DNA of 64,000 nucleotides from Alphaproteobacteria bacterium (lineage in GTDB: Bacteria; Pseudomonadota; Alphaproteobacteria; Rs-D84), in contig WRHR01000001.1 in the NCBI GenBank assembly GCA_009783145.1, positions 492 to 64,491 of the forward strand. Direction: 5' to 3'. A model generated the notes under the pieces. That model searched no databases, was not told where the DNA came from, and was given only the letters and a program-made list of their open reading frames with translations. The position numbers and the translations under genes were made by a program. Shown here piece after piece: positions 6,153-37,810 of this stretch. Position 1 is the first letter of the stretch. Each line of letters begins with the position of its first letter.

Positions 6153-6205
6153 CTCTGGCCTGTGCCGGAGTGACAATTTTTTGTAAAACAAAAAATTGTG
6201 AAAAA

Positions 6206-12725: not shown

Positions 12726-13298
12726 GTGAAGTTGCAACATTATCTTTTAAAGAAATCGGATCATCCGGCGGCGCTGTGGGTGATATTCTTCCTGACGGTG
12801 TGCGAGTCCATTTTCCTGTTCGTCCCGCCCGAAGTATTCATGACCCCGACAATCGTCGCGAACAAGCGCCGCGCGGTCGGCGTCGTAATCGCGGCGTCCC
12901 TCGGCTCTCTTGTCGGCGCGGCAATCGCGTATATGATAGGCGTGTGGCTTTTCGACACGGTCGGGATATGGCTGATCGAACATTTCAGCACTATGGAGAA
13001 ATTCGAAGCCGCGCGGCAGATGTTCATCACGCACGGGCTGCTGATAATTCTTATCGCGGCGTTTACTCCCGTCCCGTTCAAACTGCTGACAATATGCGCG
13101 GGCTTCCTGCGGTTCAACCCGATTTTATATCTGGGAATAACCGCAATCGGGCGAATGATGAGATTCGCGATCGCGGGATTTTTATTGTGGAGGTTTCAAG
13201 AGCAAGCGAACGTAATCGTAAAGAAATATTTTTGGCAATTGATGCTATTCGCGATAATCATCGCGGCGGCGGGACTATGGCTGATGTGGCTGCTTTAA
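12726..13298 (+). CDS. YqaA/DedA-like inner-membrane protein, probable GTG start
   Basis: Multi-TM protein with ...LFVPPEVFMTP...FTPVPFKLLTICAGFL. A TATAAT box at 12713-12718 lies just upstream. Confidence 0.45.
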   Translation: MKLQHYLLKKSDHPAALWVIFFLTVCESIFLFVPPEVFMTPTIVANKRRAVGVVIAASLGSLVGAAIAYMIGVWLFDTVGIWLIEHFSTMEKFEAARQMFITHGLLIILIAAFTPVPFKLLTICAGFLRFNPILYLGITAIGRMMRFAIAGFLLWRFQEQANVIVKKYFWQLMLFAIIIAAAGLWLMWLL

Positions 13299-13804
13299 TC
13301 CGCCTTGGCCGTTTTCCAGGTCGACGCATCCATCAATTTAAAACCCTCGTCTTCCATATCCAGCAACTGCTTGCATCTGAAGTCGTCGTACCAGTTTTTT
13401 GGAGGGCCCATATAGACCCCGACCGCGCGGTTGGCGTTTTGCTGGGGATAAATCGCCACCCAGTCATAGCTTGAATCCATCTTCGCGGCGGAGATGACCG
13501 TAATGCGGTCCCGGTCGAAACCTTTCTGCTCCAAAGCTTTGCGTATCTTATCCGCGCGAGTGTTTCCTATGTTCAGGTTCAACTGCTCGTTTTCGAAATC
13601 GCTGCCCAGGCCGACCAGTATGACATTGGAGCATTGCACGACGGGGACGTCCAGGAACATATCTTCTATCGCGACTTTAGTATCAAGGGAAGTATTGGCC
13701 TTGCCGGCGTCGAAAAGCAACAGCTCTGGCGGAGGATTTTCCTGCACGGCACAAGCAGCCAACGCGCCAACGGCAATTGCGGTGAATAACATTTTTTTCA
13801 GCAT
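13295..13804 (-). CDS. OmpA-family lipoprotein (Pal-like)
   Basis: Lipobox LAAC after the signal peptide, then an OmpA-like C-domain pattern (NVILVGLGSDFENEQLNLNIGNTRADKIRKALEQKGFDRDRITV...NRAVGVYM). Confidence 0.5.
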   Translation of the reverse strand: MLKKMLFTAIAVGALAACAVQENPPPELLLFDAGKANTSLDTKVAIEDMFLDVPVVQCSNVILVGLGSDFENEQLNLNIGNTRADKIRKALEQKGFDRDRITVISAAKMDSSYDWVAIYPQQNANRAVGVYMGPPKNWYDDFRCKQLLDMEDEGFKLMDASTWKTAKAD

Positions 13805-13854
13805 GGCAGTCTCTTTGTACCGTGCCATTGTATCACTTTATTAATAAAAAACAA

Positions 13855-14030
13855 AGTCCGCGATGTGGTGTTCCCCTCCTGTGGAGGGGTGCCCCCGGAG
13901 GGGGCGGGGTGGTTCTTGTAATCTTCAAGAAGTTATGACGATGCACGAACATTACCCGAACCACCCCGCCGCGCGATAACAGCGCGCACCCCTCCACAGG
14001 AGGGGAACCGATGCACGGCCATACAGAAAA
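13855..14030. repeat. About 175-bp element bounded by inverted copies of GTTCCCCTCCTGTGGAGGGG(TG/AA)C, with an inner inverted pair CCCCGGAGGGGGCGGGGTGGTTC / GAACCACCCCGCC
   Basis: Seen directly. The same 22-bp palindrome recurs at 49496-49523. Confidence 0.6.
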
Positions 14031-14060
14031 AATCGCCGCGATTGCGGCGATTTTTTATTT
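14026..14060. terminator. Bidirectional terminator ATCGCCGCGATTGCGGCGAT with flanking A/T runs. An identical stem recurs at 37032.
   Basis: Perfect 20-bp palindrome followed by T-runs on both strands, immediately 3' of the 14055..14549 gene. Confidence 0.7.
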
Positions 14061-14549
14061 TTTCGGAAATACTTTCTGATATTGTCTTTTCCACCATCCG
14101 GGTTTCGCTTCTTGCGCCGGCTGAGCGACTTCGGAAGTCTCCGTTTCTTCGGCGGACGCTATTTCCGCAGTCTCGACGGGTTCTTCCACGATCACTTCTT
14201 TGGGCGCCGGCTTTTCAACCGGAGCTTTTGCCACTTTCGATTTTTCTAGTTCTTGCGCGTCTTTCCAAGCCTGCTTTTTCTGAGCTGCTGCTTCTTCTGC
14301 CTTTTGCGCGGCCAAGGCTTTATCTACCTCTTTCCCCTCGCAAGTGATTTTGTTGCAGTTCTCATGGTAATGGCTGTTGTATTTGCCGCCAACCCAATTC
14401 ACGCAGTGAGACTTGGTGTCGGACACCTGCTGGCAATGGTGGGTTTTGGTCCCGATTTTTTCGTCCGGGTCAGCCTTGTTGTACTCGGCGGGTTTCGAGC
14501 ACGCCGACAGCGCTATAACGGACGCGATTATAAGTAATTTTTTTAGCAT
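14055..14549 (-). CDS. Lipoprotein with a Cys/His-rich motif (THHCQ...HCVNWVGGKYNSHYHENCNKITC) and a Lys/Ala/Glu-rich tail
   Basis: Lipobox LSAC. The motif is shared with the adjacent paralogue at 14668..14937. Confidence 0.5.
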   Translation of the reverse strand: MLKKLLIIASVIALSACSKPAEYNKADPDEKIGTKTHHCQQVSDTKSHCVNWVGGKYNSHYHENCNKITCEGKEVDKALAAQKAEEAAAQKKQAWKDAQELEKSKVAKAPVEKPAPKEVIVEEPVETAEIASAEETETSEVAQPAQEAKPGWWKRQYQKVFPKK

Positions 14550-14562
14550 AGCAGTTCCTTTT

Positions 14563-14683
14563 CATAAGTCGCTAGTCGAAAGTCGTTAGTCGCTAGTAAT
14601 ACTGCGCAACTCATAATAGTTGTCCTTTATAATGGACAATGCTATCAGTTGCTCATGCTGCTAGCGACTAGCGACGATCGCGC
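14563..14683. repeat. Core-palindrome element (TTGTCCTTTATAATGGACAA) flanked by inverted GCTAGTCG/CGACTAGC tandem arms
   Basis: Seen directly. The core is shared with the elements at 35205, 35768 and 61095. Confidence 0.7.
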
Positions 14684-14937
14684 ACAGTCTTGCAAGAGAT
14701 TTCATTGCAGTTTTCGTGATAATGGCTGTTGTATTTGCCGTTAACCCAGTTCACGCAATGAACCTTGCCGTTGCCCAGTTCCTGGCAGTGATGAGTTCTG
14801 GCCGCTCTACTGGTTTCTTCAGTTTGGACCGCACTGCCGGTTGCTTCTTGAGTTCTGGCCGCTCTGCTGACAACTTCTTCAGCAAAAGCCCCGCCCGAAA
14901 TCATAGCCGCAATGGCAACGATAAGTATTTTTTTCAT
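14668..14937 (-). CDS. Small secreted paralogue of the Cys/His-motif protein (ARTHHCQELGNGKVHCVNWVNGKYNSHYHENCNEISC)
   Basis: Signal peptide MKKILIVAIAAMISGGAFA. The conserved HHCQ-x-HCVNWV-GKYNSHYHENCN-I-C block matches 14055..14549. The last codons are encoded by the arm of the adjacent repeat. Confidence 0.5.
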   Translation of the reverse strand: MKKILIVAIAAMISGGAFAEEVVSRAARTQEATGSAVQTEETSRAARTHHCQELGNGKVHCVNWVNGKYNSHYHENCNEISCKTVRDRR

Positions 14938-15140
14938 CTGTTTTCCCCTTTGTTTAGAAGCCTGTTGCAACGCAACGATGTATCCTCACGATGCGCATTA
15001 CAATTTTTTGCTAATAACGCAAAAAATCTAATGCTTTTACGCTCGGATTCATAGTCAGCTCCTTTGGTTCACCTGAGATTATAGACAAAAAGTTTGAGGT
15101 GTCAAGCTTTTTGTTCTATAATCTCATGATTCCGATTGGA

Positions 15141-17144
15141 TTAGAACCCAAAGGTTATACCGGCTCTCCAGCTAACGTTGGCCTTGTCGCCTGTGGCGTA
15201 TGACGCGCCGACATTGACCAAGGTTCCGTTGTTGATGTAGTGGAACGCGCCCAGCGCAACGCCGAAGGCGTCACGATAGCCGCCCGTACCGATGGAGATC
15301 TGAGTATCGCCGCTGGAGCGAGCATTCGGCACCAACGCCGACATCGCCGCCAAGCCTGCGAATCCGGAACGAACTTCCTTGCTCAGGTCATCGACGCGGT
15401 TGTCCAGACGATCGATTTCAGCCAGAGTATATTCATACACATAGTTGATGGAGTTCGTCAGGTTCAAAGCGTAGTCTTTCGCGACCATGCCGGACTGGAT
15501 GTCCGCGCGCAGTTGGCGCACATCGCCGGTTTCCAGAACGGTTGCGACATTGTACGCGCCGTCGGTGGTCGGATCCATTACGTTTTCAGCACCGGTCGCC
15601 AAGTAAGACAAGGTCTTGATGGCTTCGTCTTCCGCACCGACCGCGCCCGAGTTGAACACCAGCGAACCAGTGTCTTCGTCGACGATCACAGAGTTCTGAC
15701 CGATGTGGATTTTGCTGGAGCCCGAATCCTTGCCGCCATCGCGACGGATTATGTCATCGATTTTTTCTTCGGTGGCAAGCAAGGCATCCGTCAGGTTGTC
15801 TATGCCGTCAAGGTGAGAGCGATAGTCGCTGCCATCCGCCGCATCCTGAAGTTTGGACACGTCGCCGATAACACTGTCAAGCGCCAGTATGCCTTCGGTC
15901 AGGTTGGTTGCGTCTTGAACGCCCACGTTGTTAGCAGCGGAGAAGTCCAGGTCGCCTTCGGCAGCCATCGCGCGGTTCTTTTCTTTAAGAACTTCCGCGT
16001 CGGTGTAGGTATTCGCCGCAGTCAAGGTGGCCGCGCCAACGCCGTCAGCATAGGTGTTCGCAGCCGTCAGTGTGGCAGCGTCGCCAGCGTCGGCATAGGT
16101 ATACAGCAAAGCCGCGGATGCCGCAACAGCAGCGTCAGCATAAGTGCTGGAATACGTTATGGCTTCAGCTTTCTTTTGGTCGGCATAGGTATACAGCAAC
16201 AGAGCCGAGTCCGCAACCGCAGCATCAGCATAGGTGTTGGCCGCTGTCAGAGTGCTTGCGCCTACTCCGTCAGCATAGGTGTACAATGCAAGCGTTGTGT
16301 CGGTAAGAGCCGTATCCAAAGCATTCAAGGCGCCCGCGACGCTCGTTTGACCATCAATGGCTCCGCCAGCTTGCAGCACGTCTTTGAAATCCTGGGTTGT
16401 GGAATCAAAGCCCAACTGTTCGCCCATGTAAGCTTCTGCTTTATCCCATGCGGCCGTGCCAAGCGCCATAACTTCGCTCTTGGTATAGTAGTCATCGAAC
16501 GCGGCATCCAAAGCGTTGAGCGCTCCGGCTACAGTTGTTTGACCGTCAATGACGCCACCGGCACTCAGCACATCCTTGAAGTCCTGAGTCGTGGAGTCAA
16601 AGCCCATTTGCGAACCCATATATGCTTCCGCTTTGTCCCAGGCAGCTTCGCCTTCTGCGCGCAGCGTGGATGCAAGAGTGGCCAAGTCAGTCGTGCTGGC
16701 TTTGGTGTCCATCGCGGTGTCCAAAGCATTGATAGCTTCGGCCACATTTTGCGCACCGTCAATGGTTCCGCCAGTGTTCAACACATCTTTGAAGTCTTGA
16801 GTTGTTGAATCATAGCCCATCTGCATGCTCAGTTCGGCTTCCGCAGCGTTCCAAGCGGCCAGACCGGCTGCCATTAACGTTGACTCTAACGAAGCCCCAA
16901 AGGCATCAACTTCAGCCTTGGTGTAAGCATCAGTAATGCCATAACCAGCTAAGGTTGTCGCGGCGTCAGCTTTGCCCGCTAACTGCGCGGTCGTAGCAAG
17001 ATCCGATAATTGTACACCACCGAGGTTGGGCATAGCAGATGCAGAACCATCGTCAACCATTATATCGCCCGCAGCCGCGAATGCGCCGGAATTAAATCCG
17101 ATGCCGACCGCAGCCACAAGTGCGATTAGACTTATTTTTTTCAT
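15141..17144 (-). CDS. Trimeric autotransporter adhesin (YadA-like)
   Basis: Signal peptide, stalk-like repeats (TLTAANTYADAAV..LLYTYAD), and a C-terminal YadA-anchor-like segment ...LSKEVRSGFAGLAAMSAL...GASYATGDKANVSWRAGITFGF. Confidence 0.75.
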   Translation of the reverse strand: MKKISLIALVAAVGIGFNSGAFAAAGDIMVDDGSASAMPNLGGVQLSDLATTAQLAGKADAATTLAGYGITDAYTKAEVDAFGASLESTLMAAGLAAWNAAEAELSMQMGYDSTTQDFKDVLNTGGTIDGAQNVAEAINALDTAMDTKASTTDLATLASTLRAEGEAAWDKAEAYMGSQMGFDSTTQDFKDVLSAGGVIDGQTTVAGALNALDAAFDDYYTKSEVMALGTAAWDKAEAYMGEQLGFDSTTQDFKDVLQAGGAIDGQTSVAGALNALDTALTDTTLALYTYADGVGASTLTAANTYADAAVADSALLLYTYADQKKAEAITYSSTYADAAVAASAALLYTYADAGDAATLTAANTYADGVGAATLTAANTYTDAEVLKEKNRAMAAEGDLDFSAANNVGVQDATNLTEGILALDSVIGDVSKLQDAADGSDYRSHLDGIDNLTDALLATEEKIDDIIRRDGGKDSGSSKIHIGQNSVIVDEDTGSLVFNSGAVGAEDEAIKTLSYLATGAENVMDPTTDGAYNVATVLETGDVRQLRADIQSGMVAKDYALNLTNSINYVYEYTLAEIDRLDNRVDDLSKEVRSGFAGLAAMSALVPNARSSGDTQISIGTGGYRDAFGVALGAFHYINNGTLVNVGASYATGDKANVSWRAGITFGF

Positions 17145-17375
17145 AAGGTTTCTCCTTGTTTTTGTTTAGTAATTCCCTTCCTATTAGGAATATGGCCCCA
17201 GTATTCTATTCCTGATGGCAATAGTCAAGAAAAAAATCCCAATGCATTGCAAATTTATGATGCTTGACATATCAAAATAATGGTTAAACGTGAAAAGCGC
17301 GTAATTTCAGCGTCTTGGCGTAAAATACCGTTGTCCTGTTGGGAATTTTATCCTATATTATGTATTAATCATCAA

Positions 17376-17620
17376 CTGGATTGCTTCGCCCGTTGGGCTC
17401 GCAATGACAATAAGGAGTGTGTTCAAGGCACACAGCCTAAAACAAACGCCGACTTGTCATTGCGAGGAGCGCGTAAGCGCGACGCGGCAATCCAGTCAAT
17501 AAAAAGGAATCATACACTATTCACTGGATTGCTTCGTCCGTCTTCGCTTCGCTACGCCGCGACTCGCAATGACAATAAGGAGTGGATTGCGGAGCACAGC
17601 GAACAATGACAAGGGAGAGA
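17376..17620. repeat. Cluster of family-A MITE-like elements (TIR CTGGATTGCTTCGC...GCTCGCAATGACAA / TTGTCATTGCGAG...GCAATCCAG). One full copy and further half copies.
   Basis: Seen directly. Full copies also occur at 17941-18095, 29338-29455, 59300-59415 and 60186-60292. Confidence 0.75.
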
Positions 17621-17626
17621 ATAAAT

Positions 17627-17935
17627 ATGAAAGAACATCATTACTATGTCTATATTCTTTTCAACAAACGCAACGGGACTCTTTACACCGGCGTGACGCG
17701 CGACATATTTCGCAGAACTGAAGAGCACAAAAGCAAAAAGCCTTTTGGATTCGCAGAAAAACACGGGGCGGACAAATTAGGCTATATTGAAAGCTATCAA
17801 TATGTTAACGATGCCATCTTCCGTGAAAAACAAATCAAGGCCGGATCGCGAAAAAATAAGCTGAAACTAATCGAATCGATGAATCCCGAATGGAAAGACC
17901 TGTGGTACGAGCTTGGGAATTTTGTTTGGAGTTAG
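17627..17935 (+). CDS. Small GIY-YIG nuclease-family protein (URI-domain type)
   Basis: HYYVYILFNKRNGTLYTGVTRDIFRRTEEH... carries the GIY-YIG signature. It is a paralogue of 36548..36928. Confidence 0.7.
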   Translation: MKEHHYYVYILFNKRNGTLYTGVTRDIFRRTEEHKSKKPFGFAEKHGADKLGYIESYQYVNDAIFREKQIKAGSRKNKLKLIESMNPEWKDLWYELGNFVWS

Positions 17936-17940
17936 CAATA

Positions 17941-18095
17941 GTATTGTCATCGCGAGGCGCGAAGCAGCCGTGGCGACTGGATTGCCGCGCCCTGCGGGCT
18001 CGCAATGACAATTCGGTGTTTGTTTTAGGCTGTGTGCCCTTTTTGCTCTTCATTGTCATTGCGAGGAGCGCAAGCGACGAAGCAATCCAGTGAAT
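17941..18095. repeat. Family-A MITE-like element
   Basis: ...GACTGGATTGCCGCG...GCTCGCAATGACAATTCGGTGTTTGTTTTAGGCTGTGTGCCC...TTGTCATTGCGAGGAGCG...GCAATCCAGTG. Confidence 0.75.
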
Positions 18096-18123
18096 AACAA
18101 TATGCAAAATTTATATTTACTAA

Positions 18124-19005
18124 TTGTTATTTACTTCCTATACTGCGCGCGTGGAACAAAATACCGTGATTTCTTTCGCAAACGTTGCGGCGCGGTACGA
18201 AGGCGGGCGAGAGGTCCTGTCCGACGTATCCTTTAATATCAGCAACGGCGCTTTCTATTTCCTGTCCGGCGCGTCGGGGGCGGGCAAGACCACCCTTTTG
18301 CGCCTTATATATATGCTGCACCCCGCATCACGCGGCCAGATAAAGTTATTCGGAAAGACCACAACCGGAATGTCGCGAGACGACATCACCGCGCTTCGCC
18401 GCAAGATGGCCATCGTGTTCCAAGAGTACTCGCTGGTGTCGCACCTGTCGGTCTTCGACAATATCGCCCTGCCCTTGCGCGTTCGCGGCGCAGATGAAAA
18501 GTATGTGAAGAAACTTGTCGCGAAAACTTTGGAATGGGTGGGACTTGCGCAGTACGCAAACCAGCGCCCGCTGAATCTTTCCGGCGGACAGCAGCAGCGC
18601 GTTTCGGTCGCGCGCGCTATCATTACTCAGCCCGAAATCTTACTCGCGGACGAGCCGACCGGAAACCTGGACGACGATTCGGCCGCGCGACTGATGGAAT
18701 TATTCTTGCAGATGAACAAGAACTTCGGCACTGCCATCATTCTTGCAACGCACAGCCAGCGCCTGATGGACACTTACAAGTTCCCAAAGATTTATGTCGA
18801 AAACCAGCATGTGCGATTCGAGACGCGAGACGCGAAACGCGAAACGCGTGTCGATGATACAGAACCAACTGAAAAAAAATCTAAATCTCAAAATTCTGGC
18901 GCGTCTCGCGTCTCGCGTCTCGCGTCTCGCGATAAAAGTTATTTCGAAGAGCTATCGGGAAAACTTGAATTGGAATTTTCAAAACTGGCGGGAGAAGAAA
19001 AATGA
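18124..19005 (+). CDS. ftsE: Cell-division ABC ATPase FtsE, with a C-terminal extension created by an in-frame repeat-element insertion. A GTG at 18166 is a possible alternative start.
   Basis: Walker A GASGAGKTT, LSGGQQQRV signature and Walker B ILLADEPTGNLD. After ...YVENQHV the frame reads through the heptamer-arm element (ETRDAKRETR...SRVSRLASR). The stop overlaps the ftsX ATG (ATGA). Confidence 0.85.
   Translation: MLFTSYTARVEQNTVISFANVAARYEGGREVLSDVSFNISNGAFYFLSGASGAGKTTLLRLIYMLHPASRGQIKLFGKTTTGMSRDDITALRRKMAIVFQEYSLVSHLSVFDNIALPLRVRGADEKYVKKLVAKTLEWVGLAQYANQRPLNLSGGQQQRVSVARAIITQPEILLADEPTGNLDDDSAARLMELFLQMNKNFGTAIILATHSQRLMDTYKFPKIYVENQHVRFETRDAKRETRVDDTEPTEKKSKSQNSGASRVSRLASRDKSYFEELSGKLELEFSKLAGEEK
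18815..18940. repeat. Heptamer-arm palindromic element (GAGACGC/GAAACGC x4 ... GCGTCTC x4) inside the ftsE reading frame
   Basis: Seen directly. Translated as ETRDAKRETR...ASRVSRLASR. Confidence 0.8.
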
Positions 19006-21259: not shown

Positions 21260-22633
21260 CTAGGGGAGTTTCGGCGACCAGGTCGGCTCCAGCCCGTTGA
21301 CGCCTTCGGGCAGCTTTATATCATATGTGTTGTGCCCCATTATATCCACGCTGCGGATATGGCTGACGCGCTCGGTATCGCTGTATTTTTCCGTTTCGTA
21401 ATAGACGACGCGGCGACTGCCCGGCGCCCAGCTTGGGGCCTCCATATACCATCCTCCGGCAAGGATTTTCTCGTTCTTTCCCTTCGGCGACATCACTCCG
21501 ATGAAAAAGGTATCGTCCGCTATCTTCGTGAACGCGATATAGTTCCCGTCGGGGCTCCACGCGGGCGTGGCATAGCGCCCGTTGCCGAATGTTATGCGCT
21601 GCTCGGACAAGTCGCCCAGGTCCATCACATGAATCTGCTGGCTGCCCGACCGGTTCGAATTGAACGCCAGCTTTTTCCCGTCCGGGGAATACGAAGGCGA
21701 AGTATTGATATTATCGCCGAACGTCAATTGGCGCAGCTTGCTGTTTTCCAAGTCGTATTCGTAAAGGTTCGTGGCGCCGTTCTTGACAAGGGATATCGCG
21801 ACCTTGCCGCCATCCGGCGAAAAGCGCGGCGCGAATGTCATCCCGCCGAACTGCCCCAGCTTGCGCTGCGCGCCGGTATTCATATCCAGCGTCCAGACCA
21901 TCGGATTATCGTCGCGATAGGATAGGAATACTATGGTCTGCATGTTCGGCGAAAAGTGCGGCGACATAACCATGGTTTTCGCATCCGAGATATAGCGGAA
22001 TCCGAATCCGTCGCTGTCCATTATCGCAAGGCGCTTGGTTCGGTTGCCCATCTCCCCGGTCTCGGTCGTCATGGCTATCTGAGTATCGAAATACCCGACT
22101 TCGCCGGTCAATCTTTCATAAATGCTGTCCGCCATGATATGCGCGAGACGCCGGGCGGATTTCTTAGGCGCGACCAGGACTTGGGCTTCGATCTGTTCTT
22201 TGCCCTGGATATCCCAGACATAGAACTGCAGGCTGTATTTTCCGTCGGCGGTTTCCGTAAGCCGGCTTTGCACCATGACCTGGGTTTTTATCGCTTCCCA
22301 GTCTCGCCAAACCGGCATTTCGTCCATTTTTACGAGTTTAGGATGCGCGGCCTGCTTTACGATATGGAACAAGCCGGTGGATTTCAGGTCGTTTTCCACA
22401 ACTTCGCGCAGGGTCGCGGCCAGTTTCGCGTCTTTGGCCTCGAACTTTTGAATCGCGATCGGTATGGGCGAGACGTTGCCGGCGATAATATCGACCTTTA
22501 ATTCGGCGCGTGCCGCGCCGATAAAGAATAAAGAATAAAGAATAAAGAATCCGAGTTGGCAATTTATTGCCTTTACGAGGATACGCGCAGACGCGAAGCG
22601 TCGAGCGAATAAATTCTTTGCTTTTTTTAACAT
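21260..22633 (-). CDS. tolB: Tol-Pal system beta-propeller protein TolB. The start is trimmed to MLKKAKNLF.
   Basis: N-terminal TolB domain plus repeated WSPDG beta-propeller blades (SPDGGKVA, SPDGKKLAF, AWSPDGNYIAF). The signal peptide contains the tandem heptamer AAAGAAT x4. Confidence 0.9.
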   Translation of the reverse strand: MLKKAKNLFARRFASARILVKAINCQLGFFILYSLFFIGAARAELKVDIIAGNVSPIPIAIQKFEAKDAKLAATLREVVENDLKSTGLFHIVKQAAHPKLVKMDEMPVWRDWEAIKTQVMVQSRLTETADGKYSLQFYVWDIQGKEQIEAQVLVAPKKSARRLAHIMADSIYERLTGEVGYFDTQIAMTTETGEMGNRTKRLAIMDSDGFGFRYISDAKTMVMSPHFSPNMQTIVFLSYRDDNPMVWTLDMNTGAQRKLGQFGGMTFAPRFSPDGGKVAISLVKNGATNLYEYDLENSKLRQLTFGDNINTSPSYSPDGKKLAFNSNRSGSQQIHVMDLGDLSEQRITFGNGRYATPAWSPDGNYIAFTKIADDTFFIGVMSPKGKNEKILAGGWYMEAPSWAPGSRRVVYYETEKYSDTERVSHIRSVDIMGHNTYDIKLPEGVNGLEPTWSPKLP

Positions 22634-22765
22634 AATGTTTCCTTTCCTTAGGCACGGCGATTTTATCTTATAACAAATAAAAAGCAAACAAAATAAAAAC
22701 TCCACTGGACACGATTCGCGCATTTTGATAGAATTCAGAGACTAATATTTAGGAATGGATGCCCT

Positions 22766-25700
22766 GTGAAGAGAGAAGGCCGGAAAATCAGCTTGGTCGC
22801 GTTAATTATCGCCGCGTTCGTCGCGCCGGCAATGGGCGCCGATATAAACATAGTTACCTCCAAGCAATACGTCGACGCCAGGTTCAACCCTGCCGACGCC
22901 GCGACCAAGATTGCGGTCGTGACGCTTGACGCCAATAATCGCCCCATCGTAAAGAATGATAAGAGCATTTCAGACATACTCGGCGGCATAACTACAACGA
23001 CCACCGGTGCCGGTAATGCGGTTACAAGCATTTCCGACGACGGCGCGGGCCATATCACTGCGACCAAGGGCTCGACTTTCTTGACCGGCGAAACCGACCC
23101 GTCCATCGATACCACTGTCATGGGCACTGCGGCGACTGCCGCGGGAACGACTGGCACCGCGGGCAAGGTTTATACGGTTCAGAAAAATGCGGCCGGGAAA
23201 GCAGTCGTCAGCGTGCCTTGGATGGATAACAATACGACTTACACCGGCACCGCGCCAATTGATGTAACCGGTACTGTCGTGTCTCATAATACTTCCGGCG
23301 TAACAGCCGCAGCATATGGGCCCAGCGCTCCCGCGACTTTGACATCTGGCGGAACGTTTACCGTTCCCAGCGTGACTGTAGACGCAAGAGGACATGTCAC
23401 TGCTGCTGCTGCGCAAACCATGACTATGCCAAGCATACCTGCGGCTGCAAATAATGCCGCGATTAAAATAGCATATGCGACGACCGGCATAACGGCTGCA
23501 GGGAACTTTGCGACCGTCAATCAAGCGGCCGATAGTACTTTGACCTTGCATACTGTGGCAAGCACCGGAAGCTATAACGATCTGGGCAACAAGCCGTCGA
23601 TACCAGCGGCTCAGGTTAATAGCGATTGGAATGCAGGCAGTGGCGTTGCGCAGATACTGAACAAGCCGACAATACCGACTATAACTATGAACAACGCTGG
23701 GACTACGACGCCGAGCTTTTATGCTCCGACAGCAGGAGGCACTTCGGGTAATGTTCTGAAATCCACCGGGGCGACCAGCGCTCCGACTTGGGGGACATTG
23801 TCTTACTCTGATATTACTGGCACCCTGCCGCAGGTGCAATCTGACTGGGCTCAGGCGACAACGGGTGCGGCTGATTATATTAAGAACAAACCGACGATAC
23901 CAAATACTGCTGGCACTGGCATCAACATAACCGGCGCGACCATAACTAATACCGCGCCGAATTTGCAAACGAAGAATATTGTCGGAGCGGCGACCGGCGC
24001 GACTGCGAATGCGGCCTCTACGAACGGCAATACGTATTTGAATGCTGTTGAGAACGGCGCTGTGGTCAGCACTCACAAAATCGCTGGAGGCGGCGCGACT
24101 ACTGTTACTTCCGACGCTTCCGGAAACATAACCATCAGCAGCACGGATACGCCTCCTACGACATATACCGGCACCGCGCCTATTAATGTGACCGGTACTG
24201 TTGTATCTCATAATACTTCCGGCGTTACGGCGGCAACTTATGGTCCCGGCGCGAATGCGACATTGGCTTCGGGCGGAACATTTACTGTTCCGGAAGTTAC
24301 GCTCAATGCGACAGGACATGCGACCGGCGCCGCGACAAGAACATTTACCTTGCCGACTATATTAACCCATCCGGCCGGCGCGAACGGCACTTTCGGACCG
24401 GCTGCGAACGCGACACTGACTTATGGCGGCACATTCACAGTTCCGCAAGTAACCGTCGATGCGAACGGGCATACGACAACAGGCGCGACAAGAACATTTA
24501 CCATGCCGGCCGCGCCGACCGCTTATACTCACCCCAACGACGGCGGGGCTGGAACGTACGGTCCGGGAGCAGATGCAACATTAGTAAGCGGCGGCACGTT
24601 TACAGTTCCACAAGTAACCGTCAACGCTGCCGGGCACACGACTTCGGGCGCGACCAGAACGTTTACTATGCCCTCGATTCCCGCGGCTGCAAACAATGCA
24701 GCGATTAATATTGCATATGGCGCAACCGCAACAGCTCCGGGACAATTTGCGACTGTTGATCAATCAGCTGCTACAACTCTTACTTTGCATACTGTGGCAA
24801 GAACAGGAAGTTATGATGACCTGACTAACAGGCCGACTATTACGGATACTAAGATCAAGGCGTTCAACGGCAACGTTACTGCAGGCACGGCGGCGGCATA
24901 TACTCTTGCGACCACATATCCTGCGTTCACGGCGGCGGATATGGCTGACGGAACGGTAGTGTTTGCGACTCCGAACCAAACGAACTCCGCCGGCGCGACG
25001 TTATCCGTTGGCGGGCAGACAGCGCGTCCGATTTGGAATTCCGCGACCGGCGCGACTGTGGCGGCAAGCGCTTTGGTTGCGAACATGGCTTACTCGTTCA
25101 CGTATGACGCCACGAATAACAGATGGCATGCAAAGCAGCTGGATACAAACACGGTTTATACTCATCCGACCGGTGGTGCGAACGCTACGCTTGGTCCGGG
25201 GGCGAATGCGACGTTGACATTCGGCGGCACATTTACCGTTCCGCAAGTAACTGTCGATGCGAGCGGGCACACGACTTCTGGCGCGACAAGAACATTCACT
25301 ATGCCTGCGACGCCGACGGCTACGGGCACTGCGGGCGGCGATTTGACCGGAACTTATCCTAACCCGACTTTGACCACGACTGGCGCGGCTGCCGGAACTT
25401 ACGGCATTACGGCGGATGCGTCCGGATCCGGAGCAAGCTTTAAAGTTCCGAAATTCACTGTCGATACCAAGGGTCGTTTGAGCATGGCGGGAGAGAATAC
25501 CGTCACTATGCCGACGACAACGACTTATGCCGGCACCGCGCCAATTACCGTAAGCGGAAGCAGCATAACTCATGACGACTCCGGCGTAACGGCCGCAGCA
25601 TACGGGCCCAGCGCGCCCGCGACCTTGACATCCGGCGGAACGTTTACGATTCCGTCAGTTACCGTTAATGCAAAGGGCCACGTCACGGCGGCAGCAACTC

Positions 25701-28700
25701 AGACCATGACCATGCCTACGATACCGGCGGCGTTCACTCATCCGGCCGGCGCGAACGGCACATTCGGTCCGGCTGCGAATGCGACTTTGACTTATGGCGG
25801 CACATTTACAGTTCCGCAGGTAACAGTTGATGCGAATGGGCATACGACCACCGGCGCGACCAGAACATTCACTATGCCGGCGATTTACACTCATCCCAAT
25901 GACGGCGGAGCTGGAACATACGGTCCGGGCGCGGATGCTACTTTGGCAAGCGGCGGCACATTCACGGTTCCGTATGTAACGGTCAATGCGGCCGGTCATA
26001 CGACCGCCGGCGGAGTCAGAACATTTACCATGCCGACTTTATCGCCGAACTTGCAGACAAAAAATATCGTCGGCGCGACAACGGGGGCAACCGCGAACGC
26101 GGCTTCTACGAACGGCAACACATATTTGAACGCCGTTGAGAACGGCGCAGTGGTAAGCACTCACAAAATCGCGGGCAGCGGCGCGACTACCGTCATATCG
26201 GATGCGTCTGGCAATATAACTATCAACAGTCCCGCCGCCACGACATATACCGGAACTGCGCCGATTACCGTAAGCGGAAGCAGCATCACTCATGACAACT
26301 CCACCGTCACGGCTGGAAATTACGGTCCGGCGGCGAATGCGACGTTGACTTCCGGGGGAACATTTACAGTGCCGTATATCTCCGTCGACGCGAAGGGCCA
26401 TACAATCACAGGCACGGCGACAAGAACGTTTACGATGCCGACTATTACGGATACTAAGATCAAGGCGTTCAACGGGAATGTTACCGCGGGCACGGCGGCG
26501 GCTTACACTCTGGCAACTACATACCCGTCGTTTACGGCGGCAGATATGGCTGACGGAACGGTTGTGTTCGCAACTGTGAACCAGACGAACTCCGCAGGTG
26601 CGACGCTGGCTGTTGGCGGACAGACTGCAAGGCCGATTTTCAATACTGCGACTGGGGCTGCTGTGGCGGCGAGCGCGCTGATAGCGAACACGGCTTACTC
26701 GTTCACGTATGACGCCACGAATAACAGATGGCATGCCAAGCAGCTTGATACGAATACGTTAACGCGGGTTAATCTGAACAACGCGGGATTGAACAGCGGC
26801 GACATTACGGCGTTCTATGCTCCGACCGGGGGCGGCACGTCAGGCAACGTTCTGAAATCCACCGGGGCGACCAGTGCTCCGACTTGGGGGACTTTGAGCA
26901 CCAGCGACATCACCGATATAAATACATATGTTACGACGAACGCGGCCAAATCATTCAACGGGGCAACTACTACCTTGGCGACTAACGCTTACTCGCTCGC
27001 GGCAACGCAGCCGACGTTTGCGGCGGGGAATTTGGTCGCAGGCGCGGTGGTGTTCGCTACATTGAACGCGACGAATCCGTCGGCTGCTCCGACTTTGAAT
27101 GTGAATTCTACCGGCGCGAAGACCATCATGCTGAACGGCGCGGCGACGGGGGCGAGCGCTTTGGTTGCGAATGTCGCCTACTCATTCACTTACGACGGCA
27201 CGAACTGGAGCGCAAAGCAGCTTGATACGAATACGTTAACGCGGGTTAATCTGAACAACGCGGGATTGAACAGCGGAGATATTACGGCGTTCTATGCTCC
27301 GACCGGGGGCGGCACATCTGGCAATGTCTTGAAATCCACCGGAGCAACCAGTGCGCCGACTTGGGGGACGTTGTCTTATTCGGATATAACTGGAACTGCT
27401 CCGGACACCAAGATTAAGGCGTTTAATGGGAACCTTACCGCAGGCACGGCGGCGGCTTACACTCTGGCGACCACATATCCGACGTTTACAGCGGCGGATA
27501 TGGCTGACGGAACGGTTGTGTTCGCTACTGTGAACCAGATGAACTCCGCCAGTGCGACATTGTCTGTTGGCGGACAGACCGCGAGGCCGATTTTCCATAC
27601 TGAGACTGGCGCGGCCGTGAATGCGGGCTCATTGGGGACGTACAGGGCACATTCATTCACTTACGATGGCACGAACAACAGATGGTACGCAAAGCAACTT
27701 GATACGTACGAACATTCCGCATCAGGCAATCCTGGGCAATACGGTCCGACTTCCGGCGGAACATTGGCCTTCGGCGGCACATTTACCGTTCCATATATAG
27801 AGGGAAATGATCAAGGACATGTCATTGATTCTGGGGAAGTTACATTTACTCTGCCGGCGGCGCCGACTGTCACTGAAACCGATCCGCTGTTCAACGCCCT
27901 TGACGGGACAGCTGGGGCGACCACCGGGACTGCCCCGACATACCTTCTTACCACCGCCGCTGCAAAGAAGATAACTCTGACGACCGGCGCGCGCGTCATT
28001 ACGAAGATACATGCCGCCGCAACGGCCGCAGCCACTTTGAATGTAACCTCGAACAGTGTCGCTCTGGGGGCAAAGGCCATCTTTGTGAACGGTGCGGCGG
28101 TCAGCTCTACCAATCCGTTGAAAGCGAACGCGGTTTACGAATTCATATATGACGGGACTCAGTGGCAAGCGATTGGCACGGATACTATTCCGGATTTGAG
28201 CACAGTTGTTCCGACATACGAAACCGATCCGAAGTTCAACTACTTCGACGGCACGATTAGCGGAATGGCGCCGAGCTATACTCTTACCACGTCAAAAGTC
28301 ATACCTTCGCCATTGGCGGCTGGTGCCCGCGTGGTTGCAAAAATCCAAGGAACCGCAACATCTGCCGCAACTTTGACCGTTATTGCGAATGGCGTCAATC
28401 TCACTGCAAAGAACATATTTGTAAACGGCGCTGCAATCAGCTCGACCAATCCGTTGAAAGGCGCTGTTTACGAGTTCATCTATGATGGAACCCAATGGCA
28501 GATTATTGGCGCGATTCAAGATGTTGCAACAAATGAAGCCGACCCGAGGTTCTTCTTCTACGATGGGCAGACCGGCGGAACCGCGCCGAATTATACTCTT
28601 ACAACGACAAAGATCGTGCCCACCATGGTATCGGGCCCAGGCGCGCGCTTGGTCGTGAAATTTCATGCCGGCACGACATCCGCCGCGGCTTTGAACTTAA

Positions 28701-29293
28701 CCAGCGGAGTTAAACTCCTCGGCCAATATCCGATATTTGTGAACGCCGCCGCGGTAAGTCCGTCCAATCCGCTGAATGCCGCAGTTTACGAGCTCATCTT
28801 CGACGGCACTCAATGGCAGGCAATCGGTTCCGGCAGCGGCGGAGGCATATCTGCCGCGACGACGACTAAACTGGGCGGCGGAAAATTATTCTTTAATCCT
28901 TATCCTGGTATAGATCTGGGCGCAACAGAGACCGATTGTCTTGTGGACGAGACAGGGATGAAGGGTGAATGTCGTGCTTATCCGATCCAGCTTAATGACA
29001 CCGACGACAAAATGTATGTTGCAGTTCCGGATGCGTACACAGTAGTTAATAACGAATTTTATAACAACATACTTCCAAGCATTCCTGTCGCCACCATTGA
29101 ATACAGCGCGGGCAACGGAGGTTCGAACGGTATGATTCCAAAGATACCGTATGCCTGCCGCGCGGGACAGAATCCAAAGGTTACCTGCATGCTCGGATAT
29201 GGCGAATTTACCAGCAACGGCGCGAACGGCACGGGCGTTGATGCCGCCGGCGGATCCGGCACCGGATTCTATTGGGAAAAAGTCACACGTTGA
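22766..29293 (+). CDS. Giant repetitive secreted protein (2175 aa, GTG start). It carries more than 15 tandem repeats of about 45 aa (YGPxANATLTxGGTFTVPQVTVDANGHTTxGATRTFTMP) and C-terminal repeats of about 80 aa (...AKxIFVNGAAxSSTNPLKxAVYEFIYDGTQWQ).
   Basis: Single 6.5-kb ORF with a signal peptide and highly periodic Thr/Gly/Ala-rich repeats. Shadow ORFs on both strands are rejected. Confidence 0.7.
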   Translation: MKREGRKISLVALIIAAFVAPAMGADINIVTSKQYVDARFNPADAATKIAVVTLDANNRPIVKNDKSISDILGGITTTTTGAGNAVTSISDDGAGHITATKGSTFLTGETDPSIDTTVMGTAATAAGTTGTAGKVYTVQKNAAGKAVVSVPWMDNNTTYTGTAPIDVTGTVVSHNTSGVTAAAYGPSAPATLTSGGTFTVPSVTVDARGHVTAAAAQTMTMPSIPAAANNAAIKIAYATTGITAAGNFATVNQAADSTLTLHTVASTGSYNDLGNKPSIPAAQVNSDWNAGSGVAQILNKPTIPTITMNNAGTTTPSFYAPTAGGTSGNVLKSTGATSAPTWGTLSYSDITGTLPQVQSDWAQATTGAADYIKNKPTIPNTAGTGINITGATITNTAPNLQTKNIVGAATGATANAASTNGNTYLNAVENGAVVSTHKIAGGGATTVTSDASGNITISSTDTPPTTYTGTAPINVTGTVVSHNTSGVTAATYGPGANATLASGGTFTVPEVTLNATGHATGAATRTFTLPTILTHPAGANGTFGPAANATLTYGGTFTVPQVTVDANGHTTTGATRTFTMPAAPTAYTHPNDGGAGTYGPGADATLVSGGTFTVPQVTVNAAGHTTSGATRTFTMPSIPAAANNAAINIAYGATATAPGQFATVDQSAATTLTLHTVARTGSYDDLTNRPTITDTKIKAFNGNVTAGTAAAYTLATTYPAFTAADMADGTVVFATPNQTNSAGATLSVGGQTARPIWNSATGATVAASALVANMAYSFTYDATNNRWHAKQLDTNTVYTHPTGGANATLGPGANATLTFGGTFTVPQVTVDASGHTTSGATRTFTMPATPTATGTAGGDLTGTYPNPTLTTTGAAAGTYGITADASGSGASFKVPKFTVDTKGRLSMAGENTVTMPTTTTYAGTAPITVSGSSITHDDSGVTAAAYGPSAPATLTSGGTFTIPSVTVNAKGHVTAAATQTMTMPTIPAAFTHPAGANGTFGPAANATLTYGGTFTVPQVTVDANGHTTTGATRTFTMPAIYTHPNDGGAGTYGPGADATLASGGTFTVPYVTVNAAGHTTAGGVRTFTMPTLSPNLQTKNIVGATTGATANAASTNGNTYLNAVENGAVVSTHKIAGSGATTVISDASGNITINSPAATTYTGTAPITVSGSSITHDNSTVTAGNYGPAANATLTSGGTFTVPYISVDAKGHTITGTATRTFTMPTITDTKIKAFNGNVTAGTAAAYTLATTYPSFTAADMADGTVVFATVNQTNSAGATLAVGGQTARPIFNTATGAAVAASALIANTAYSFTYDATNNRWHAKQLDTNTLTRVNLNNAGLNSGDITAFYAPTGGGTSGNVLKSTGATSAPTWGTLSTSDITDINTYVTTNAAKSFNGATTTLATNAYSLAATQPTFAAGNLVAGAVVFATLNATNPSAAPTLNVNSTGAKTIMLNGAATGASALVANVAYSFTYDGTNWSAKQLDTNTLTRVNLNNAGLNSGDITAFYAPTGGGTSGNVLKSTGATSAPTWGTLSYSDITGTAPDTKIKAFNGNLTAGTAAAYTLATTYPTFTAADMADGTVVFATVNQMNSASATLSVGGQTARPIFHTETGAAVNAGSLGTYRAHSFTYDGTNNRWYAKQLDTYEHSASGNPGQYGPTSGGTLAFGGTFTVPYIEGNDQGHVIDSGEVTFTLPAAPTVTETDPLFNALDGTAGATTGTAPTYLLTTAAAKKITLTTGARVITKIHAAATAAATLNVTSNSVALGAKAIFVNGAAVSSTNPLKANAVYEFIYDGTQWQAIGTDTIPDLSTVVPTYETDPKFNYFDGTISGMAPSYTLTTSKVIPSPLAAGARVVAKIQGTATSAATLTVIANGVNLTAKNIFVNGAAISSTNPLKGAVYEFIYDGTQWQIIGAIQDVATNEADPRFFFYDGQTGGTAPNYTLTTTKIVPTMVSGPGARLVVKFHAGTTSAAALNLTSGVKLLGQYPIFVNAAAVSPSNPLNAAVYELIFDGTQWQAIGSGSGGGISAATTTKLGGGKLFFNPYPGIDLGATETDCLVDETGMKGECRAYPIQLNDTDDKMYVAVPDAYTVVNNEFYNNILPSIPVATIEYSAGNGGSNGMIPKIPYACRAGQNPKVTCMLGYGEFTSNGANGTGVDAAGGSGTGFYWEKVTR

Positions 29294-29337
29294 TGGCAAA
29301 TGGAAAAAAGTGTAGGCTTCGCCGATACTTTTTTTTA

Positions 29338-36495: not shown

Positions 36496-36993
36496 GTCAC
36501 TCCTGCGTAGGCAGGAGTGGGCCCAGACAGTGCAAGCGTAAGCGAGCCTATAAACCTTTCACTATTATTTCCCCACAATCCAGCTTTCTAAAAAATTCTT
36601 CAGTCATTCCTTCTTTGGGCAAGATTTCATCCAATTCCGCCGCCAAATCCTTCCATTCCGGATTCATCGTTTCAATTAATCTATACTTCCAAGCCCGTTT
36701 CCATTTTTTAAGCGCTTTTTCTCTATCAATCGCCTTATCAACATATTGAAACCATTCGTAATAACCAAGTTTCTTCGTATTGTGTTCTTGCGAGTTTCCT
36801 TTTATCAATCCCAGTTTATGCTCCATAACACGACGTTCTAAATCGTTGGTCATACCGATGTACGTTGCCTGAGCGCGTTCATTGAACATGATATAAACCC
36901 AAAAATTGTATTCTTTGAATTCTTTCATAAAAAGAGAATAGCGAAGTTCGGAAATATTTTCAAGACCCACTCCTGCCTACGCAGGAGTGACAA
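36496..36993. mobile_element. Candidate mobile cassette: a GIY-YIG gene bounded by perfect 27-bp terminal inverted repeats TGTCACTCCTGCGTAGGCAGGAGTGGG. Each repeat is itself a family-B hairpin.
   Basis: The left TIR lies at 36496-36522. The right TIR at 36967-36993 is its exact reverse complement. The gene's start and stop codons abut the repeats. Confidence 0.45.
36548..36928 (-). CDS. Small GIY-YIG nuclease-family protein (URI-domain type)
   Basis: NFWVYIMFNERAQATYIGMTNDLERRVMEH...NPEWKDL. Paralogue of 17627..17935. Confidence 0.7.
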   Translation of the reverse strand: MKEFKEYNFWVYIMFNERAQATYIGMTNDLERRVMEHKLGLIKGNSQEHNTKKLGYYEWFQYVDKAIDREKALKKWKRAWKYRLIETMNPEWKDLAAELDEILPKEGMTEEFFRKLDCGEIIVKGL

Positions 36994-37075: not shown

Positions 37076-37810
37076 TTACCGTTTTCTCGCGTTCAGTTCT
37101 TTTACACGTTGCTCGACGAACCGGCGAACGCCCGCCCAGAGATCCGCGCCCTCGTTCAGGTTGCGCGACGAGTGGTCCAGCGCGATCTGCGCGCAATCCG
37201 AACGGGCCCTGTTCCAAGCGCCCAGCGAAACATCCTCATCTTTATCCTCAAACAATCTTGCTATCTCGCCTGTCTTCGTGTTATACAAATAATACATCGC
37301 TACTGCGCCGTCCGATTCCCCCAGCTTTGTCTTCTTTACTTTCTTTGCGTATGTGCTTTCCTTGATACCAATCCCAGGGCCGGCGGTTATTCCGCACAGT
37401 TTCCAATCTGAATCTTTCAGCTCCGGCTGATTATCCACGAACTTCTTCGCACGCTTCATTTCCGCCTGGTCTTTATATATGGTATGGTTATTGTCGCCAT
37501 ACGCCGTGTTCAGGTAGAAATTATCCGCATTGTTGCTGTATACTCCATCCCCACCGTTAATGATATCGTACGCATAGCCCACAAGTTGGCTGTTCTGGTT
37601 GATGATCGTCGTCATCTTTGCCATTGTTTCTTTCAGATCAAGGGGTTTTACCTGGGATTCCAACCGCTCTAACCTTGCGGCCAATTCTTTGTTTTGAATT
37701 TCCAAATTTTTGACTTTAATGCTCAAGCTTTTATGACCGCGAAAAAAGAACTCGTAAACTTTATTTTCCGCAATCTGCTGCTTCAACGTTTTCGGCTTTT
37801 CATTAGACAT
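37076..37810 (-). CDS. DGR variable (target) protein: coiled-coil N-terminus, with the C-terminal VR encoding an Asn-rich CLec/FGE-sulfatase-like ligand-binding tip
   Basis: The C-terminal 40 codons (LGAWNRARSDCAQIALDHSSRNLNEGADLWAGVRRFVEQ) form a 120-bp VR matching the TR at 38055-38174. All differences sit at TR adenines. Confidence 0.8.
   Translation of the reverse strand: MSNEKPKTLKQQIAENKVYEFFFRGHKSLSIKVKNLEIQNKELAARLERLESQVKPLDLKETMAKMTTIINQNSQLVGYAYDIINGGDGVYSNNADNFYLNTAYGDNNHTIYKDQAEMKRAKKFVDNQPELKDSDWKLCGITAGPGIGIKESTYAKKVKKTKLGESDGAVAMYYLYNTKTGEIARLFEDKDEDVSLGAWNRARSDCAQIALDHSSRNLNEGADLWAGVRRFVEQRVKELNARKR
37113..37232 (-). repeat. DGR variable repeat (VR), 120 bp, at the 3' end of the target gene
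   Basis: Reverse complement is 110/120 identical to the TR. The 10 mismatches all correspond to A in the TR (A to C/G/T). Confidence 0.85.

Follow-up and report, generated by a model that had tools for sequence, protein, structure and literature searches.

Tagged hairpins around two small GIY-YIG genes of an uncultured alphaproteobacterium: a probable Ssn/SRM locus with a variant hairpin class

Introduction

We analyzed a 64,000-nucleotide stretch of DNA (hereafter the window) from an uncultured bacterium of the Alphaproteobacteria (assembly GCA_009783145.1, metagenome contig WRHR01000001.1, held in ENA, positions 492 to 64,491), so that the organism is sampled here by one 64-kb contig. At 17.4–18.1 kb, between the gene of a YadA-anchor adhesin (start 17144, minus strand) and ftsE (18124), a cluster of repeats encloses a small gene, ssnA#1 (17627..17935, plus strand), that encodes a 102-aa single-domain GIY-YIG protein. 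A preliminary description of this DNA had read the repeats as miniature inverted-repeat transposable elements (MITEs) of about 120 bp with terminal inverted repeats (TIRs), and had proposed that small GIY-YIG nucleases mobilise them. Our analysis makes it very probable that the region is an Ssn/Ssn-related-motif (SRM) locus, in which the "120-bp MITEs" are inverted pairs of tagged hairpins. The Ssn proteins are site-specific endonucleases of single-stranded DNA (ssDNA) whose genes are flanked by SRMs (Chenal et al. 2025, Nat Commun 16:2388; PMC11893778).

Results

The repeat unit is a short tagged hairpin

That a repeat family is present was borne out. The sequence CTGGATTGCTTCGC (up to two mismatches) was found 9 times in the window as compared to 0.73 expected, a number reached in 0 of 100 shuffles, and the inner motif TCGCAATGACAA gave 11 exact matches and one with a single mismatch, all 12 within the copies listed previously. 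Reading and aligning the copies showed that the real repeat unit is a module of 30–51 nt, here called class A, and not a 120-bp element. On its sense strand the module reads TGTC-ATTGC-GAG-(variable)-GAA/GCG-GCAAT-CCAG, with TGTC as the tag, ATTGC/GCAAT as a basal stem of 5 bp, an internal loop, a variable GC mini-hairpin and CCAG as the tail. The tag and the tail are invariant in every full module, and the 12–33 nt between the stem arms form a mini-hairpin of their own, with 2–5 GC-rich base pairs.

The window contains 13 class-A modules, all of them intergenic. Ten are taken up by five inverted dimers, with the TGTC tags facing a core of 23–45 nt, and the other three are single; in the four full dimers the core is about 45 nt and conserved among them. 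Each so-called TIR is a self-contained hairpin module that is also found singly and in other arrangements. A check for target-site duplications, which had been suggested for the proposed MITEs, gave none at the five dimers, where the flanks only prolong the palindrome (A...T, AT-rich) and form no direct repeat. The description as a MITE in the usual sense is not supported.

In the cluster, the first dimer (17375-17496, minus strand) consists of modules at 17376-17409, with the sense of the neisserial NTS consensus on the minus strand, and at 17455-17495 on the plus strand; its tags face a 45-nt core and its orientation is opposite to that of the other dimers. It is followed by a single module (17523-17575, minus) with the longest variable loop, 33 nt, in tandem with a degenerate single module (17583-17612, minus; TGGATTGC..CAATGACAA) whose tag end lies 14 nt before the ATG of ssnA#1. 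Beyond the gene, a second degenerate module (17941-17976, plus; TTGTCATCGCGAGG...) lies 6 nt past the stop codon and abuts the next dimer (17976-18091, plus; modules 17977-18010 minus and 18054-18090 plus), 33 nt upstream of ftsE. What had been listed as one copy at 17941-18095 is thus repeat DNA, as stated, but is composed of a degenerate half module and a full dimer. Altogether, seven class-A modules lie within 260 nt of ssnA#1.

Further dimers are found at 29338-29453 (plus), between the stop codon of a 2175-aa adhesin (29293) and plsC (29512); at 59301-59414 (plus), 104 nt upstream of the first of two outer-membrane protein (OMP) paralogues (59518); and at 60195-60285 (plus), a short dimer with a truncated core of about 23 nt that lies between the two OMP paralogues and begins directly after the terminator T-run of OMP1. 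The earlier observation that the copies are intergenic was confirmed; their neighbours are surface-protein genes (the YadA-anchor adhesin, the 2175-aa adhesin and the two OMP paralogues), plsC and ftsE.

As ssDNA, the dimers were predicted in silico to form long hairpins (−33 to −38 kcal/mol; z-scores −5.9 to −8.6): dimer 17375-17496 forms one long hairpin (−38.4 kcal/mol, z −8.6), and the values were −32.7 kcal/mol (z −5.9) for 17976-18091 and −33.5 kcal/mol (z −7.9) for 59301-59414. The ATTGC/GCAAT stem together with the small GC hairpin was formed by 10 of the 11 full modules. A search of the entire window with Rfam at the gathering threshold matched no family, and when the ssnA#1 cluster was scanned for promoter and terminator consensus sequences, no signal could be attributed to the modules, the one terminator-like site being located within a core (1.7 expected by chance).

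The product of ssnA#1 matches Pfam PF01541 (E 2e-12) over residues 6-79 of 102, and no further domain was found, which confirms the earlier GIY-YIG assignment. It has at least 7993 homologues, with sequences 60–70% identical in very different phyla. Residues Y9, Y20 and E67 are invariant or nearly so across 23 sequences, and their spacing (11, 47) equals that of Y6, Y17 and E64 in SsnA of Neisseria meningitidis, a match by spacing and not by direct alignment. These are the catalytic residues that were mutated in the neisserial enzyme (PMC11893778).

A second GIY-YIG gene is bracketed by hairpins of its own

Only one GIY-YIG gene had been recognized in the preliminary description, a picture that proved incomplete. 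A paralogue that had been overlooked, ssnA#2 (36548..36928, minus strand), encodes a 126-aa GIY-YIG protein 47–48% identical to that of ssnA#1 (tblastn of the latter against the window, E 8e-26). This gene is surrounded by an inverted repeat of 36 nt (36486-36521 / 36966-37001, 97% complementary), the arms of which are tagged hairpins of a different kind, here called class B. The downstream arm (36486-36521, plus) has its tag outward, reads TGTC-ACTCCTGC-GTAG-GCAGGAGT-GGG and folds at −10.6 kcal/mol (z −4.4); the upstream arm (36966-37001, minus) likewise has its tag outward. A third, solitary class-B hairpin is located at 6149-6175 (minus), where the published SRM motif also matches.

With its 9-bp stem and 4-nt loop, class B fits the stem and loop definition of the CGTC-tagged repetitive extragenic palindromes (REPs), which have a (C/T)GTC tag, a stem of 8–9 bp starting with AT, a loop of 4–5 nt and a CCA tail (Di Nocera, De Gregorio & Rocco 2013, BMC Genomics 14:522; PMC3733652). 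The published SRM search pattern, HGTCWYN(0-2)YYVSBRHN(0-5)WNVSBRGN(0-2)RNCYNB (PMC11893778), gave 6 sites in the window as compared to 0.26 expected, and matched neither class-B arm at ssnA#2. Canonical SRM hairpins that match the published motif occur as an inverted pair at 7559-7647 (7559-7586 plus, 7620-7647 minus; CCCGGC-GAAG-GCCGGG type) and singly at 38411-38437 (minus; TGTCATTCCGGCGAAGGCCGGAACC) and 59039-59065 (plus; TGTCACCCCGGCGCAGGCCGGGGCC). Each of the two GIY-YIG genes of the window thus has tagged hairpins of a separate kind on both sides, and ssnA#2 with its class-B hairpin probably makes up a second pair of enzyme and motif in this genome.

Other repeats were observed around ssnA#2. 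Beside the cassette lies a 120-nt inverted repeat (37113-37232 / 38055-38174, 92% complementary, arms 822 nt apart), which looks as if the 3' part of the open reading frame (ORF) 37076..37810 had been partly duplicated in inverted orientation. Two SRM-like half sites are present at 38403-38457, and a terminator-like hairpin, AAAAATCGCCGCGATTGCGGCGATTTTT, is found in inverted copies (94%) at 14028-14061 and 37019-37052, one of which adjoins the ssnA#2 cassette.

Tagged hairpins accompany homologous genes across phyla

The association of gene and hairpin was examined at 80 homologous loci from named genomes of more than 10 phyla (Alpha- and Gammaproteobacteria, Bacteroidota, Melainabacteria, Patescibacteria, Chlorobi, Nitrospinota, Planctomycetota, Chloroflexi and others), these being the best matches to an alignment in which ssnA#1-like sequences predominate. 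Modules were counted by the published SRM motif together with a class-A pattern derived from this window; a generic detector ("GTC + hairpin + C") was set aside as too noisy. At least one module lay within 500 nt of the gene in 51 of the 80 loci (64%), and modules were present on both sides in 35 (44%). These fractions reproduce the 71% of homologue regions with at least one SRM, and the 42% with SRMs on both sides, that have been published (PMC11893778). Module density was 2.02 per kb within 500 nt of the gene and 0.107 elsewhere in the loci, a 19-fold difference, and tags pointed outward more often than inward both upstream (53 vs 29) and downstream (46 vs 29).

This was also visible in a comparison of the upstream and downstream flanks (200 nt each), where the best inverted repeat had a median score of 35 vs 18 for 787 random window pairs, the controls being taken at random positions in the same loci and not at matched gene flanks; in 61% of loci the score exceeded the 99th percentile of the controls. 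The arms almost always had the form (C/T)GTCAT-stem-loop-stem-ATCCAG, with a stem that varies by taxon (ATTGC, ATTCCCGC, ATTCCTGC, CCCCGGC and others). Hairpin class and protein varied together, since protein identity was 54.3% within a hairpin class and 49.6% between classes, a difference reached in 0 of 1000 permutations, although shared ancestry of the host genomes could add to this co-variation.

Homologues 50–61% identical to ssnA#1 carry canonical flanking hairpins of the NTS type, e.g. TTTGTCATTCCCGCGAAAGCGGGAATCCAGG in locus L029, and loci of Bradyrhizobium and Rhodopseudomonas have a class-A hairpin, CGTCATTGCGAGCGAAGCGAAGCAATCCAG. The hairpin class most often found around the closest relatives of the ssnA#1 protein is ATTGC (34 of 85 loci). 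The three closest homologues (93, 74 and 73% identity) have a module of the form TTGTCATTGCGAG..GCAATCCAGT (or TGTCATTGCGAG..GCAATCCAGT) 10–25 nt before the ATG and an inverted module past the stop codon. Their neighbourhoods are unrelated to that of the window and to each other, except for two contigs with the same protein and a shared neighbourhood. Several predicted homologues read through into the module and end in tails such as ..LDCHGAKAPRNDG. Taken together, the link between tagged hairpins and small GIY-YIG genes is real and general. The co-occurrence predicted by the preliminary description was thus found; of its proposal that the nucleases mobilise the repeats, the association holds (19-fold, and at both genes of the window), whereas mobilisation is a possibility, and a rather doubtful one.

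Four short-read contigs from the same organism or related ones (L101 and L102, corresponding to window positions 58683-60142 and 59320-60223, and L004 and L006) end inside class-A modules. Contig ends of this kind usually mean that a module is present in several genomic copies and interrupts assembly, so that copy numbers derived from metagenome-assembled genomes will be too low. Class-A modules are also found in the viral collection IMG/VR, where at least 120 contigs (L103-L222) contain exact modules, mostly as inverted pairs 17–20 nt apart with tags outward; an Ssn-like ORF was also present in 1 of these 120 loci, among the matches listed. In a separate search, 34 IMG/VR contigs (L223-L256) were found to encode an Ssn-like protein, with a module within 500 nt in 14. 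The contigs of both sets may be phage genomes or host flanks of prophage calls.

Genes and modules are absent from syntenic relatives

A relative found with FtsX (L090) is syntenic with the window over 4.6-36.4 kb at 60–90% amino-acid identity, and closer relatives were obtained in a search with DnaN (L096, 91% identical DnaN; L099, 85%). Neither an ssn gene nor a class-A core nor an SRM was found in L090, L094 and L096-L098 (73 kb). Window positions 13273-18106, which hold small ORFs, the YadA-like adhesin gene and the cluster around ssnA#1, have a counterpart of 27 nt in L090. The giant adhesin and its dimer are missing from L090 and L096, in which tolB abuts plsC, and of the two intergenic regions with SRMs, the one at 6.1 kb measures 657 nt in the window and 151 nt in L090, and the one at 7.6 kb measures 533 and 70 nt, respectively. 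In L096 the gene for elongation factor P is followed after 82 nt by a trxB-like gene, and in place of these 82 nt the window has 4.2 kb, in which the ssnA#2 cassette lies. In L099 and L100 a tail variant of class A is found at other positions, with three copies upstream of dnaN. Occupied and empty sites thus differ between related genomes, and the GIY-YIG association is strong; neither of the two findings that would have told against the preliminary description was therefore made.

The events behind these differences are less easily read. Since the closest relative, L096, is without the entire segment 36426-40642 (4.2 kb), the boundaries of the ssnA#2 cassette cannot be read off, and L090 ends 60 nt short of it. 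No indel coincides with the ends of a single element, and with relatives as divergent as these (DnaN 85–91% identical, different GC content) the indels cannot be taken as dated insertions. The contigs in which precisely the ssnA#1 and OMP1 proteins are encoded match the window at 100% identity, some of them ending inside modules, and no insertion polymorphism was seen at the strain level, the only retrievable strain-level contigs being identical to the window. The genes of the 93%-identical proteins are homologous in nucleotide sequence up to the limits of the ORF and not beyond, and their flanks have only modules in common, differently arranged, which argues against an insertion sequence (IS) with fixed ends and for frequent rearrangement at modules. 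An origin of the dimers as deletion derivatives of a module-ssnA-module element was also considered and rejected as insufficiently supported, since GACAAGGGAGAG is all that the core has in common with the leader of ssnA#1 and since the 93%-identical genes lose their homology where the ORF ends.

Two surface-gene blocks of the window are missing from L090 and L096, where the flanking genes abut: 13273-18106, with the YadA-anchor adhesin (15141..17144), and 22526-29512, with the repeat-rich 2175-aa adhesin (22766..29293). Both have class-A modules at the right-hand edge only. The GC content of the window is 51%, as compared to 32–45% in relatives with 85–91% identical DnaN and conserved gene order, so that base composition has shifted greatly within a narrow clade. 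In the relatives L090 and L094-L100 the intergenic regions are much shorter and GC-rich repeats are missing, with L099 and L100 as the exceptions.

Other palindromic repeats in the window

Palindromes of a different build, composed of heptamer runs ((AAACGCG)n ... (CGCGTCT)n), are located at 18817-18930, 34028-34146, 35162-35289, 52424-52521 and 56820-56936. The first is part of the ftsE ORF, at its 3' end. Positions 35146-35268 (123 nt, 41 codons) form an in-frame insertion in uvrC relative to L096, in which the flanking amino-acid matches are contiguous, and resemble the Rickettsia palindromic elements that reside inside genes. Hairpins with arms of short, tandemly repeated heptamer-like units (AGAGTAx, CTCTGTG, AGTCGNT and TTAGCAAT) are found at 30248-30337, 57842-57899, 32627-32662 / 51048-51083, 14567-14598 / 51114-51145 and 61048-61192, and a related hairpin of the AGTCG type is present in L099 (8900-8960).

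Discussion

A probable Ssn/SRM locus and its possible mode of action

The anatomy of the modules, the protein family (GIY-YIG, single domain), the association of gene and hairpin across phyla and the absence of gene and repeats from syntenic relatives were all obtained here, and how the enzyme would act can be drawn from the published members of the family. SsnA of N. meningitidis is a 94-aa single-domain GIY-YIG protein that binds an oriented hairpin, CGTCATTCCCGCGMAVGCGGGAATCYRG (the NTS consensus), only as ssDNA, and makes one cut in one ssDNA strand a few nt 5' of the tag; binding and cleavage have been shown directly for four Ssn homologues, and the tested homologues did not cleave double-stranded DNA (dsDNA). 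Within the NTS, the 3 nt preceding the palindrome and the C following it count most, whereas the loop can be replaced and the stem extended, the identity of the loop being dispensable. SsnA reduces transformation by motif-bearing DNA (all PMC11893778). By analogy with the four tested enzymes, the ssnA#1 protein would bind its cognate hairpin only when this becomes single-stranded, as in replication, repair, recombination or DNA uptake, and would nick the bound strand a few nt 5' of the tag. In the dimers of the window such a cut would fall inside the core, once per strand. The enzyme may limit or shape ssDNA recombination around the flanked genes, which, as in Neisseria, are mostly surface-protein genes. 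The ssDNA-specific cleavage and the role in recombination are thus what we infer from the literature.

Several observations weigh against placing the locus in this family. The published SRM pattern matched 0 of the 13 class-A modules, single modules fold weakly (−2.6 to −8.2 kcal/mol, with non-significant z-scores), and the contiguous stem of 5 bp and the loop of 12–33 nt contrast with the 8–9 bp and 4–5 nt of the CGTC-REPs. In class B, GGG takes the place of the C that is critical for binding. The modules nearest to ssnA#1 have their tags toward the gene, opposite to the commonest arrangement, and tag-outward modules follow one step farther away, at 17455 and 17977. As for the protein, NCBIfam has no specific model for it, and a PDB sequence search matched only the distant UPF0213 proteins 1zg2 and 1ywl and no solved Ssn. 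On the other side, the predicted membership in the Ssn family is indirectly supported by the homologues 50–61% identical to ssnA#1 that have canonical NTS hairpins on their flanks, and the tolerance of the published enzyme for loop replacement and stem extension makes the long variable loop of class A compatible with recognition. Class A probably works like an SRM, yet it lies outside the published pattern.

A further question is whether the hairpin-ssnA-hairpin unit is a selfish, IS-like element with the GIY-YIG protein as transposase, and the dimers its REPIN- or MITE-like passengers, spread by way of ssDNA intermediates. This idea extends the Ssn/SRM explanation and does not replace it; it was already part of the preliminary description, and Chenal et al likened the motif-gene-motif layout to an IS and to REP/RAYT systems and put forward a domesticated mobile element as their hypothesis (PMC11893778). 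We consider it possible but rather doubtful. The layout is suggestive, with inverted modules on both sides of the gene in 44% of the 80 loci and 36-nt arms at ssnA#2, and so is the distribution, as the closest homologues lie in unrelated neighbourhoods, proteins 60–70% identical are spread across phyla, L090 and L096 have neither gene nor modules, and L099 has its tail-variant modules at other sites. Several dimers start right after the T-run of a terminator, hinting at a preferred target, and the lack of target-site duplications is shared with ssDNA "peel and paste" elements. However, GIY-YIG enzymes are not known to transfer or ligate strands, and no such activity has been reported for Ssn. 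Inverted modules also offer one cleavable site per strand, so that by our reasoning the known single cut alone could not free a dimer or a cassette, there being no two cuts in the same strand. To this is added that the 93%-identical genes share no fixed ends beyond the ORF, and that the indels, seen against divergent relatives (GC 33–45% vs 51%), are undated while contigs of the same strain are identical. The fuller version, in which the cassette is a mobile ssDNA element with a GIY-YIG enzyme replacing the HUH transposase, and the class-A dimers are non-autonomous, home to positions past terminators and accumulate by horizontally acquired surface genes, we regard as somewhat less likely still.

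Two simpler accounts of the same DNA fare worse. If the repeats were ordinary palindromes (terminators, mRNA stabilisers or protein-binding sites) and the adjacent GIY-YIG gene a coincidence or a hitch-hiker, one would understand why the copies are intergenic, often just past a terminator or upstream of a promoter region, and why the dimers are very stable hairpins, since REPs of other bacteria serve structural and regulatory roles (PMC3733652). Such a coincidence is improbable in view of the 19-fold enrichment by one gene family across phyla, the co-variation of hairpin class and protein, the binding and cleavage demonstrated for four homologues, and the consensus scan, which attributed no terminator or promoter signal to the modules. 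A free-standing homing endonuclease of the phage Seg/I-TevI type, which would cut empty sites in dsDNA, spread through repair of the break (homing) and leave the hairpins as remnants of its target, is more improbable still: the distribution is patchy and a sub-threshold match to TIGR01453 (group I intron endonuclease; E 0.002) was obtained, but its 18 bits are far under the family cutoff of 56, and for this reason the assignment was rejected. The 102-aa protein moreover consists of the GIY-YIG domain only, with no DNA-binding domain, the dispersed gene-free dimers would be left unexplained, and the tested homologues do not cut dsDNA (PMC11893778).

Implications

Under the Ssn/SRM explanation, an anonymous repeat family of an uncultured gut-type alphaproteobacterium is tied to an enzyme family with a defined biochemical activity, and a single genome can hold at least two enzyme-hairpin pairs and a third hairpin class that has no cognate gene in view. 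The ATTGC class escapes the published SRM pattern, and the published counts therefore probably underestimate the system. In annotation, the repeats account for frequent spurious ORF fragments, e.g. "LDCFA..LAMT" and "ARNDN". As in Neisseria, the repeats lie beside surface-protein genes, and here both are missing together from syntenic relatives. Should the nuclease prove to multiply the repeats, the enzyme long sought for the CGTC-REPs would have been found; and if the cassette is a mobile ssDNA element, it would provide their "missing transposase" and represent a second, independent origin of REPIN-like replicators.

Comparison with known systems

The locus is most similar to the Ssn/SRM systems (PMC11893778). 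It shares with them a single-domain GIY-YIG protein of about 95–100 aa, inverted tagged hairpins around its gene, and hairpins scattered in intergenic regions and clustered near genes for surface and membrane proteins; class A also has the GTC tag, the stem starting with AT, and the C after the palindrome, followed by CAG. It differs in that class A has a 5-bp stem and a 12–33 nt loop with a GC mini-hairpin of its own, which is outside the published pattern, in that the dimers of the window have their tags inward around a conserved 45-nt core, and in that two paralogues and two hairpin classes occur on one contig. The host is an uncultured alphaproteobacterium. A literature search found no later paper on the Ssn family.

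The CGTC-REPs are mostly inverted dimers, occur mostly in Alphaproteobacteria and include dRS3 of Neisseria and RPE-4 and RPE-6 of Rickettsia; the CGTC-1 units of Bradyrhizobium have loops of unusual length. According to the authors they "apparently lack a dedicated transposase", and no associated enzyme was found (all PMC3733652). Class A meets their definition in the (C/T)GTC tag, the stem starting with AT and the CCA tail, and resembles them in being extragenic and mainly alphaproteobacterial, in the predominance of inverted dimers and in having no transposase nearby, but departs from them in the stem and loop lengths already discussed.

Classical MITEs, such as the Correia elements and Nezha, are likewise about 100–150 bp, intergenic and multicopy, with terminal inverted repeats. 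The repeats of the window, by contrast, lack target-site duplications as well as a parent IS encoding a DDE transposase, and their "TIRs" are independent hairpins; no transposase shares the termini of the dimers, only the 102-aa GIY-YIG gene does, although not all ORFs of the window were screened for transposases.

The REPIN-RAYT systems, reportedly described by Bertels & Rainey in 2011 and by Nunvar in 2010, likewise combine short hairpin repeats, mostly in inverted doublets, with a single-copy nuclease gene flanked by its own repeats, have no target-site duplication, and rely on the recognition of an ssDNA hairpin with a conserved unpaired tag. Their enzyme is an HUH/Y1 transposase of the IS200/IS605 type, which cuts and rejoins and uses a GTAG tag, whereas here a GIY-YIG protein is paired with TGTC. 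The partnership of repeat and nuclease has thus already been published, and the window is a new example of it and not a new kind of element; new relative to the published systems are the variant hairpin outside the motif, the two enzyme-hairpin pairs on one contig, and the co-location with accessory surface-protein genes.

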